A DNA stretch of 64,000 bases, taken from NCBI GenBank assembly GCA_001189095.1, contig LFCK01000002.1, positions 65,937 to 129,936 on the forward strand, read 5' to 3'. Position 1 is the stretch's first letter. Every line of letters begins with the position of its first letter. The DNA is from Parcubacteria bacterium C7867-001 (GTDB lineage: Bacteria; Patescibacteriota; Minisyncoccia; Phycocordibacterales; Phycocordibacteraceae). Below the pieces are notes generated by a model. The model was not told the origin of the DNA. It searched no databases and worked only from the letters and a program-made list of their open reading frames with translations. Of this stretch, positions 48,253 to 49,407 are shown in pieces. Both the position numbers and the translations under genes were made by a program.

Positions 48253-48323
48253 GCGGGATTAGTTTAATGGTAGAACTACAGTTTTCCAAACTGTTAGCAG
48301 GAGTTCGATTCTCCTATCCCGCA
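48253..48323 (+). tRNA. tRNA-Gly (anticodon TCC)
   Basis: Acceptor GCGGGAT/ATCCCGC, anticodon loop TTTCCAA, T-arm AGGAG-TTCGATT-CTCCT. Confidence 0.75.
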
Positions 48324-49329
48324 CATGTAGCACGCGAAGCGTGCGTAATGGCTGGGATAGGAGAATCGAAGCTGAGCGCGGGCACCTGCGTAGCAACGCA
48401 GGTCGCGCGAAGGGTGGTCAGGCGGAGTGTCGAGTGACGACGAGACACGAGCGCTTGACCGAAAGCGGTACTCCGCGGTTCTCCTATCCCGCACAACAGC
48501 AGAAACGGTATAATTAGCTGCACATGACAGGATCCGAAGGCCCATCTTCACAACCGGAAGGAAAAGAACAACAGCAACGTAGATACGGCCGCCTGCTTGA
48601 TACCTATAGCGAGCTCTATCAGCGTATACAGGCACACCATAGAGCACGTACGGGCCTAGCTGATGAGACTACTCAAGCGCGCCTACGCGTACTTGAGGAG
48701 AAACGTCACAATCTGCACCTTCAGCTCATAGCTCTAGGAAGTTCGCTTGGAAAAGAAAAGAGCGATGTGCTCGTAGACATCATCCGTGACCAACGAACGC
48801 TTGAAGAATATGGCTTACCAGAGTTTTCAATCCTTACAGAAAACGACATTATTGAGGATGGAAATTGGCATAATCCGTACAGCTTTAATATTGATTCAGA
48901 TGAAAAAGGAGAGGGCTTTCTTCCTGGTGCTCCGAAAAGATTCATTGATGCAGAGGAAGAATCGCAGCGACTCATTGGTCCCGATAAATGCATTATTGTA
49001 TTCAGTATCGATCCAGTCGTTGACGGCGGTACGACCCATAGTCCTGCTGATATAGAAGCTCGACGCCGTCGCGCGAAGGCGCTCGCTGAAAGTATAAAAG
49101 GTGAAGTTATAGATATGCGTGACAGTGAATATCACGAGGCATATGCTCAAATTCTTGGTGTTGAGATACCTAAGAAAGATCTCGAAGGGGTTGCTCGGAT
49201 TATACGAGATAATCCAGAACTCTACCGGTTAAAGGACGAATATTACTCAGAAGAAGAACGTAAGGAGGCTGCGGAAGAGCAGAAGTGGATTGATGGAAGA
49301 CATAAGTAATGCTTCTCCTATCCCGCACA
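48309..49329 (+). repeat. Three direct copies of the 17-bp tRNA-Gly 3' end TTCTCCTATCCCGCACA (48309-48325, 48479-48495, 49313-49329), plus one inverted copy (48353-48370)
   Basis: Exact 17/17 matches read directly in the sequence. The copies bracket a 153-bp structured segment and an ~820-bp single-ORF segment. Confidence 0.75.
48524..49309 (+). CDS. Hypothetical protein encoded on the cassette bounded by tRNA-Gly 3'-end direct repeats
   Basis: 261-aa ORF, lower GC than its flanks. Its stop is 3 nt before the third repeat copy. No recognisable domain. Confidence 0.5.
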   Translation: MTGSEGPSSQPEGKEQQQRRYGRLLDTYSELYQRIQAHHRARTGLADETTQARLRVLEEKRHNLHLQLIALGSSLGKEKSDVLVDIIRDQRTLEEYGLPEFSILTENDIIEDGNWHNPYSFNIDSDEKGEGFLPGAPKRFIDAEEESQRLIGPDKCIIVFSIDPVVDGGTTHSPADIEARRRRAKALAESIKGEVIDMRDSEYHEAYAQILGVEIPKKDLEGVARIIRDNPELYRLKDEYYSEEERKEAAEEQKWIDGRHK

Positions 49330-49407
49330 CTTTTCGCGCACCCGTTCTCATTGACCCGGTACTACCTCGGGCGTATACCTATCCTTAGATGAAGAAGGAG
49401 AACGCTC

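Follow-up and report, generated by a model that had tools for sequence, protein, structure and literature searches.

What leaves the 3′ end of a transfer RNA (tRNA) gene in three exact copies while the gene itself stays intact? This question is raised by the tRNA-Gly(TCC) gene on a stretch of 64,000 nucleotides from Parcubacteria bacterium C7867-001 (contig LFCK01000002.1; the whole stretch is referred to as the window, and positions are counted from its first letter). A first-pass annotation, made from the letters alone, had taken the triplicated tRNA end, which bounds a structured segment and a single-gene cassette, for the footprint of serial site-specific integrations by integrase-less or decayed elements. 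We find that the structured segment is not a decayed remnant but an intact trailer element, as we call the members of a widespread family of folded non-coding elements. On balance we favour the view that two insertions are stacked on the tRNA gene, the trailer element (48326–48495) and then the cassette (48496–49329), and that they entered by recombination acting in trans.

The tRNA-Gly(TCC) gene lies at 48253–48323 on the + strand (Rfam RF00005, 71.2 bits; 48253–48324 according to ARAGORN); both ARAGORN and Rfam return a tRNA that is complete without splicing, and CCA is not encoded. Copy 1 of the 17-mer TTCTCCTATCCCGCACA (48309–48325) corresponds, in the numbering of the Rfam alignment, to tRNA nucleotides 59–73, that is, from T-loop nucleotide 59 to the discriminator A73, followed by two further nucleotides, CA. 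A pattern scan of the whole window located two more exact copies on the + strand, copy 2 at 48479–48495 and copy 3 at 49313–49329, along with an inverted copy at 48349–48365 that has three mismatches. There is no further match with up to three mismatches anywhere in the 64 kb, and shuffled windows contained a mean of 0.10 matches, none of 100 attaining four. The three direct copies that had been reported are therefore confirmed, and they bound an insert while the tRNA stays intact, the configuration by which tRNA islands are recognised. The arrangement is the same in every NCBI, JGI and Logan assembly that carries ORF261, the open reading frame (ORF) of the cassette, and as these independent assemblies agree, an assembly artefact was ruled out.

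The first segment behind the tRNA (segment 1; 48326–48495, 170 bp) has four parts in a fixed order: a leader hairpin, an antisense copy of tRNA nucleotides 54–70, a conserved core of about 105 nt and a sense copy of tRNA nucleotides 59–75. The leader (48326–48353, + strand) carries the hairpin GCACGC-GAA-GCGTGC (48330–48344), which is kept through compensatory changes in two relatives, L030 and L047 (L-numbers denote loci retrieved from other genomes or metagenomes). The 5′ arm that follows, GGGATAGGAGAATCGAA (48354–48370, + strand), is the exact antisense of tRNA nucleotides 54–70 over all 17 nt, and it pairs with the 3′ half of the tRNA (32-nt arms, 81% complementary) around the leader hairpin, much as the first-pass annotation had proposed; it pairs equally well with copy 2 (15 nt, 93%). 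The core, of a kind that we call type A, occupies 48360–48474 on the + strand (58 bits, E 3.6e-11 with the covariance model R1 described below, and supported by covariation) and starts 36 nt after the tRNA. Its closing helix mimics a T-stem and encloses two long hairpins with the loops AGCA and GAGUGACGACGA, and its conserved junctions are GAG..GGGUC and GUGACCGA. Copy 2 forms the 3′ arm, a 17-nt sense copy set against the 17-nt antisense one. An optional small hairpin, GCGG-UACU-CCGC (48465–48476, + strand), sits between T-loop nucleotides 58 and 59 of the 3′ arm and recurs in relatives as NNN-UAAU-NNN.

Segment 1 is 62% GC and contains neither a credible ORF nor a coding remnant. The 248 nt from the start of the tRNA to copy 2 fold with a z-score of −9.7, none of 200 shuffled sequences folding as well, which bears out its earlier description as a GC-rich, hairpinned, non-coding segment; in the minimum-free-energy fold of these 248 nt the 5′ strand of the tRNA is paired with copy 2. 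The segment combines a match to R1, a tRNA upstream on the same strand and both an antisense and a sense arm, which is everything by which a trailer element is defined. The antisense copy belongs to the normal build of the element as its 5′ arm and did not arise by accident.

The tRNA-Gly gene is not special in this respect, as a second gene in the window carries the same element. This lies at 45945–46078 (+ strand) behind tRNA-Arg(TCG) (45870–45944), and its type A core (45988–46069; 50.6 bits, E 2.5e-9) is flanked by an antisense T-arm, GAGGGATTCGAA (45987–45998), and a sense arm, CCTCCGAGAGCACC (46065–46078). The latter is a 14-nt copy of the 3′ end of tRNA-Arg, placed 121 nt downstream of it after GC-rich hairpins. 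The two cores of the window are 52% identical to each other. We also observed that tRNA-Arg(TCG) encodes CCA and that the copy in its element terminates in ACCCC. A third gene, tRNA-Pro(TGG) (46888–46959), has a partial copy of itself directly behind it (46797–46875, − strand), comprising in order a hairpin with the loop CUGGGAG, the variable region, the 5′ strand of the T-stem, a 28-nt T-loop hairpin and the 3′ strands of T-stem and acceptor; the variable region, the T-stem 5′ strand and the 17-nt 3′ end are identical to those of the gene. This copy has neither a type A nor a type B core. Comparable direct partial tRNA copies are present in L047 and L053.

To what family, then, does segment 1 belong? 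The model R1 was seeded with eight elements from other genomes and no sequence from the window, and within the window it matches only the two cores given above. The fold was assessed on two samples, 29 genome-derived hits, ascertained through one tRNA, and 113 distinct metagenome sequences, retrieved independently by a core-only pattern and hence ascertained through a single variant of the core, on contigs without taxonomic assignment. It can be seen that 92% of cells are paired in the genome-derived sample against 64% after shuffling, and 93.2% against 66.9% in the metagenome sample; these percentages are inflated because the alignments were fitted to R1, although the shuffled and slid controls still fall far below the observed values. 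Compensatory changes were found at 32 of the 34 modelled pairs in both samples. The covariation score was 0.61 for the genome-derived sequences, compared with 0.19 on shuffling (none of 500 as high) and 0.08–0.09 when the partners were slid; for the metagenome sequences it was 0.52, compared with 0.145 (again none of 500) and 0.05–0.09. On the strand that is sense for the tRNA, G.U and U.G pairs outnumber A.C and C.A pairs by 58 to 13, and one G.U pair is preserved in 105 of the 113 metagenome sequences. We conclude from this excess and from the preserved pair that the fold is read on the tRNA-sense strand.

In total the family numbers more than 140 copies behind many different tRNAs, and among the first 120 matches listed in the metagenome scan more than 110 were recoveries of the element. 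The inserts share a plan: a leader, the 5′ strand of the acceptor, an optional long hairpin, the T-stem 5′ strand with a complement of the T-loop, the core, and tRNA nucleotides 56–74. Type A, found in the window, is one of several core types; another, type B, forms a three-way junction and shows compensatory changes at 9 of its 19 predicted pairs, and nested and tandem combinations of cores occur. The first-pass suggestion of a decayed element fails for segment 1, which is an intact, covariation-supported member of this family. At E ≤1, Rfam recognised nothing but tRNAs in 45.5–50.5 kb of the window, and in 16 loci that carry elements nothing reached gathering score apart from tRNAs and a single RNase P RNA. 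No family in Rfam 15 fits the element and no description of it was found in the literature searched. Insertions that follow one another at a tRNA end are a known kind of event; the element responsible here appears to be new.

We then considered which genes the elements accompany. Species-representative genomes were scanned for the T-arm and acceptor sequence of tRNA-Gly and 120 loci were listed; those bearing titles are labelled as Patescibacteria, save for a few called 'bacterium' and one Nanoarchaeia. A copy of the tRNA end lies 100–240 nt downstream in about 20 of the 120 tRNA-Gly(TCC) loci, the remainder having none. Of 316 testable tRNAs, 48 (Gly, Arg, Pro, Cys and Phe) have a copy of at least 12 nt of their own 3′ end 30–450 nt downstream, compared with four that have one upstream. 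For 28 of the 32 genome-derived core hits a tRNA, now including Leu and Lys, stands 0–248 nt upstream on the same strand; the other four hits are at the edges of their loci. The metagenome cores, found by the core alone, gave a similar picture: of 108 cores that could be assessed, 85 come after a tRNA on the same strand, with 30 anticodons and 17 amino acids represented, and for none of the 108 was the only nearby tRNA on the opposite strand. The 3′ end of the preceding tRNA recurs after the core in 50 of these 85 (median 17 nt) and its antisense copy precedes the core in 44. The remaining metagenome cores are located behind transfer-messenger RNA (tmRNA), behind rplL, in tandem arrays or upstream of tRNA-Ser; the matches to the core pattern include two or three false positives in GC-rich coding DNA.

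Some of these other positions deserve description. In L375 and L387 the core comes after tmRNA-like 3′ ends and its arms are complementary to that T arm, the genes having been identified by eye. In L344 and L401 it comes after the stop codon of an rplL-like gene, recognised by eye from an L7/L12-like C-terminus, and is closed by what appears to be the terminator stem of the gene. In five loci (L334, at about 748–877, L325, L369, L347 and L335) a type A core occupies the D loop of a duplicate of tRNA-Ser nucleotides 1–35; the intact tRNA-Ser comes directly after this duplicate, which seems to have a −10 box of its own, and the whole mirrors the 3′ arrangement.

Comparison of relatives shows that family members are insertions. 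In L093 a tRNA-Pro gene is separated from tRNA-Gly by the three nucleotides ATT, and L027 has, exactly between these two genes, a type B element of 117 nt whose last part repeats the tRNA-Pro 3′ end; the flanks are otherwise identical, so that the insertion behind the tRNA is seamless. A second, similar pair of empty and filled sites is provided by L057 and L039. The elements are accordingly inserted exactly between a tRNA 3′ end and the ancestral flank, oriented as the tRNA, with arms that match their neighbour and no protein gene. Different core types are found at the same orthologous tRNA, tandem doubles are present in L015 and L036, and decayed copies are common (L041, L047 and L088). L037 differs from L039 by an extra type B unit flanked by a 111-nt duplication of the tRNA end and a type A core. 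The locus in question is likewise variable, as the comparison of relatives suggested by the first-pass annotation brought out: across 26 syntenic species the gap between tRNA-Gly(TCC) and RarA measures anything between 0 and 5.5 kb, four of them having 0–84 bp. That annotation's claim of serial site-specific integration therefore stands as far as insertion is concerned, since empty and filled pairs confirm that such repeats bound insertions at a tRNA 3′ end; the action of an integrase we only infer.

Copies of a tRNA end of at least 13 nt at 450–4000 nt downstream are rare, being confined to the window, L033 and one tRNA duplicate. In L033 two identical 144-nt elements surround 508 nt holding a 58-aa ORF (found by reading, with no ORF tool), and in L047 about 1 kb with two ORFs lies between a 5′ arm and a remnant of the tRNA end that abuts RarA.

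Segment 2 of the window is an 817-bp single-gene cassette (48496–49312, + strand) with copy 3 as its far boundary. Its gene, ORF261 (48524–49309; 261 aa), stops 3 nt short of copy 3. The segment is compositionally foreign: its GC content is 0.459, and GC at third codon positions is 0.363 compared with 0.58–0.67 in neighbouring genes, within the lowest 4.6% of windows of the same size. ORF261 has no match in Pfam, PHROGs, PADLOC or NCBIfam and no recombinase domain, and its AlphaFold model (mean confidence, pLDDT, 86.2) retrieved nothing from the PDB with Foldseek at E ≤0.001, so the profile and structure searches agree with the first-pass description of a lone lower-GC gene with no known domain. 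ORF261 encodes a conserved protein of Patescibacteria: there are 18 homologues with 37–48% identity, all without Pfam domains, against which it is full length with 25 invariant columns (R61, H62, H65, D85 and R88 are invariant, and there is an LPEFS motif), and the two whose source is named are from Parcubacteria and Candidatus Sungbacteria. The homologues lie in unrelated housekeeping contexts, and both ORF261 and ORF132 are missing from all 26 relatives that keep the tRNA-Gly(TCC)–RarA synteny. Four homologues (P0002, P0008, P0010 and P0012) are about 400 aa long with a C-terminal extension that by eye resembles a response-regulator receiver domain. The gene for a homologue directly follows an aminoacyl-tRNA synthetase gene in L006 and L007, and in L005 it abuts a tRNA-Cys element.

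How might both segments have entered? No recombinase is encoded between the repeats, as the first-pass annotation had said: segment 1 has no credible ORF and segment 2 only ORF261. The nearest recombinases are a serine recombinase (30812–32566), which lies within an element of its own, and an Xer-type tyrosine recombinase (40756–41703), the only tyrosine recombinase seen, 6.6 kb from the locus. The latter scores 239 bits with an archaeal XerA/integron-integrase model (cut-off 220) but is below the cut-offs for XerC and XerD, and reaches 125 bits with an integron-integrase model whose cut-off is 265. In the mechanism that we propose, each unit would enter by recombination within tRNA nucleotides 56–74, so that the tRNA is rebuilt and a duplicate is left at the far end. 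The recombinase would act in trans, the Xer-type enzyme being a candidate that has no direct link to the elements. In a single-stranded circle the antisense and sense arms could pair into a 15–17-bp duplex imitating acceptor/T-arm DNA, and the observed order of target, spacer, antisense target, body and target is what would be left by a single strand exchange between a tRNA gene and such a circle. The duplicated tRNA end might then serve as the landing site for further units, which would account for tandem elements and for the ORF261 cassette. The core is probably also transcribed within the tRNA transcript.

Several observations weigh against this mechanism. No recombinase, reverse transcriptase or HUH enzyme is linked to the elements or adjoins them, and no excised circle or single-stranded form was seen. 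It leaves unexplained how the arms are re-derived for 30 different tRNAs. The ORF261 unit is without an antisense arm, and next to copy 3 there is neither an antisense arm nor a core. For this genome no empty site was found at strain level, exact look-ups of ORF261 and ORF132 returning only the same arrangement and a scan of metagenomes for the junction at copy 3 giving no match. For the long duplicated stretches of L033 (144 nt) and L037 (111 nt), homologous recombination is as good an account as site-specific recombination. Cores on one contig are as diverged as those on different contigs (median identity 0.64 within and 0.63 between). Finally, 'armless' copies (L012, L096, L118 and the Lys copy of L005), which often follow an intrinsic terminator, retain the fold of the core, closed by a generic helix, and lack any tRNA copy, which suggests that the core is selected for something besides integration. 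An alternative in which the element is a functional RNA is favoured by these armless folded copies, by how old the copies are and by the occurrence of cores behind tmRNA and rplL.

Recent local bursts of copying were considered and rejected, since a core resembles the others on its own contig no more than it resembles cores elsewhere.

The alternative just mentioned is the main rival, and we regard it as a serious though less probable explanation. It holds that the elements are host-functional trailer RNAs co-transcribed with the tRNA, in which the two arms would pair into a minihelix that reproduces the acceptor/T-arm of the tRNA, copy 2 being no more than its 3′ strand. Such a minihelix could be processed by RNase P, RNase Z and the CCA enzyme, or the antisense arm could pair transiently with the 3′ half of the tRNA; the copies would originate in partial duplications nearby, and gene conversion or selection would preserve their match to the tRNA. 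All this is compatible with mobility, and the two explanations are not exclusive. The covariation, the conserved loops and G.U pair, the bias of G.U pairs to the tRNA-sense strand and the complete co-orientation with the tRNA are all as expected of an RNA, as is the retention of the fold by armless copies. Copies within a genome are old and diverged and yet their arms are identical to the tRNA, the element is also found behind tmRNA and rplL, both highly expressed genes, and the predicted fold lets the 5′ strand of the tRNA pair with copy 2. A host RNA would, however, hardly be so patchy at orthologous tRNAs (about 20 of 120 tRNA-Gly(TCC) loci, 48 of 316 tRNAs), and it does not account for empty and filled sites that join seamlessly, for differing core types at one orthologous site, or for tandem arrays, nested cores and many decayed copies. 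Intrinsic terminators, moreover, often stand between the tRNA and the core.

A second possibility, that both segments are leftovers of larger islands or prophages that carried an integrase and have been almost entirely deleted, strikes us as improbable. Direct repeats of a tRNA 3′ end are the usual scar of tRNA-targeting integrases, two genes for XRE-type helix-turn-helix (HTH) proteins lie just downstream, and the locus is a variable hotspot; for segment 2 alone the idea is still plausible. Random deletion is nevertheless not expected to give segment 1 the length class, part order and fold that it shares with more than 140 copies; segment 1 has no coding remnant, and ORF261 is full length against its homologues.

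Still less probable is that the 170 nt between copies 1 and 2 constitute an intron-like insert in the T-loop, with the antisense arm aligning the 'exons' so that copy 2 could supply the 3′ end of a tRNA. The arm pairs through its 5′ part with nucleotides 59–70 and through its 3′ part with nucleotides 54–58, which is the order of P10 and P1, the guide segments by which group I introns align their exons; the minimum-free-energy fold joins the tRNA 5′ strand to copy 2, and cores also reside in the D loop of tRNA-Ser 5′-half copies. Against this, the tRNA is complete without splicing, the core is far below any self-splicing intron in size and matches no ribozyme or intron in Rfam, and interrupted tRNA copies are fragments beside an intact gene. 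That the repeats are due to chance or faulty assembly, for which there is nothing beyond the source being a metagenome-assembled genome, is refuted by the shuffled windows, by the identical NCBI, JGI and Logan assemblies and by the recurrence of the same anatomy in dozens of other genomes.

Trans-acting recombination, our favoured reading, invites comparison with known systems. Like islands inserted by tyrosine integrases with crossover in the T-loop or 3′ end, the trailer elements insert at a tRNA 3′ end with the tRNA rebuilt, leave a displaced copy of that end (17–22 nt) at the far boundary, give tandem units on serial insertion and vary in presence among relatives (as in about 20 of 120 species for tRNA-Gly(TCC)). 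They differ in that the units are 100–250 bp long with no integrase and no protein gene, in having a covariation-supported fold and an antisense copy of the tRNA 3′ half, and in that the same core stands behind tRNAs with 30 different anticodons, tmRNA and rplL and, with the 5′ half duplicated, sometimes upstream of tRNA-Ser. Cis-mobilisable elements of the type associated with the streptococcal integrative and conjugative elements (ICEs) ICESt1 and ICESt3 likewise have att-like direct repeats, no recombination genes of their own and a tendency to accumulate in tandem at one site; those are kilobase-sized remnants of known ICEs, whereas the trailer elements have no known helper and an RNA-like conserved core.

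In CTX phage, which uses Xer, and in integron cassettes with their attC sites, a folded single strand imitates the target; this offers a parallel and not a test. An imperfect inverted repeat that folds, or in our case would fold, on one strand into a target-like duplex, a fixed orientation, cassette-like arrays that include single-gene cassettes and helices that conserve structure over sequence are common to these systems and ours. Unlike in integrons there is no IntI, attI or GTTRRRY core, and no integron-integrase gene flanks the locus; the boundaries are TTCTCCTATCCCGCACA, and the inverse copy that forms the hairpin is present for unit 1 only. Unlike in the CTX–Xer system the target is a tRNA 3′ end and not dif, and unlike in both the sequence of the arms is that of the tRNA itself, the core has conserved motifs, and a single-stranded intermediate is purely our inference.

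REPIN/RAYT elements and other miniature inverted-repeat transposable elements (MITEs) are similarly small, non-coding, hairpin-forming, multi-copy, resident in intergenic 3′ regions, sometimes clustered and mobilised in trans, as we suppose here. Copies of the trailer element within a genome are not, however, near-identical (median core identity 0.64), their ends derive from the neighbouring tRNA in place of fixed terminal repeats, and there is no short target duplication of fixed length; neither a RAYT nor an IS200-type gene is present in the annotated 3–59 kb of the window. Among tRNA-like non-coding RNAs (the tRNA-like domain of tmRNA, YrlA/Y RNA and small RNAs from tRNA 3′ external spacers), an acceptor/T-arm mimic also closes a larger domain, and the trailer elements may share with them being encoded in or co-transcribed with tRNA transcripts; here, in contrast, the mimic exactly reproduces the neighbouring tRNA, no matter which one that is, the spread is patchy and insertion-like, and Rfam holds no match.

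We know of no mobile element or RNA family that copies the 3′ half of whichever tRNA precedes it in both orientations. A broader proposal, which we put forward tentatively and consider possible at most, is that Patescibacteria have an undescribed recombination system in which the 3′ ends of tRNA and tmRNA genes act as attachment sites for recombinase-less miniature cassettes, each with a conserved structured RNA or single-stranded DNA domain and a hairpin of the antisense and sense arms that would recognise the target, and in which the duplicated tRNA end left behind may capture genes such as ORF261. If correct, this would amount to an integron-like or CTX-like platform for gene capture seated on tRNA genes. 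A structured element stands behind approximately 15% of the Patescibacteria tRNA genes sampled; to our knowledge almost no non-coding RNAs are known from this group. If mobile, the elements would offer a directly testable account of DNA acquisition at tRNA genes in ultra-small genomes that have no obvious transposases, and if functional as RNA, they would represent a new class of tRNA-linked RNA. Either way they would account for many duplications of tRNA 3′ ends that island-finding software would call degenerate islands.

Elsewhere in the window, the serine recombinase mentioned above (30812–32566, − strand, of the large type) belongs to an element of about 6 kb (approximately 29675–35650) that splits a comM-like Mg-chelatase gene into the parts 29024–29674 and 35651–36667, and that also encodes Phage_rep_O, XRE-type HTH and DUF5343 proteins and small ORFs. 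Genes for PrgI-like, TraC-like and VirB4/TraG-type ATPase proteins, as in type IV secretion or conjugation, are found at approximately 10000–22000, beside many ORFs without domains.

A viral sequence collection was also searched. The 17-mer gave one match, which has no tRNA context and is consistent with chance, and 14–15-nt words from the core gave mostly chance matches, only L136 having real tandem cores. These are type A cores at 2836–3186, at the end of a contig classed as viral (IMG/VR 3300033463_005745); the neighbouring genes are cellular (GalE, cytidine deaminase and an acetyltransferase), which makes the viral label doubtful.

Two further sequence features were noted. In L121 and L094, the tRNA-Gly and tRNA-Pro elements of one genome share a nearly identical stretch of about 65 nt, GAGCGGGCGTAGATTTCGTTG...AGAGCTTCGCG, which other elements lack. 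Copying of the L121 stretch between tRNAs was considered and dropped, as the leaders and the other helices differ; insertion of a nested unit or a conversion event is the likelier origin. Lastly, many tRNA 3′ ends are immediately followed by a short motif, (A)CGAAC..AGUGAG or CUCGAGUGAG, whether or not an element is present (for example in L068, L106, L107, L015 and L046), and this motif resembles the GAGUGACGACGAG loop of the core.

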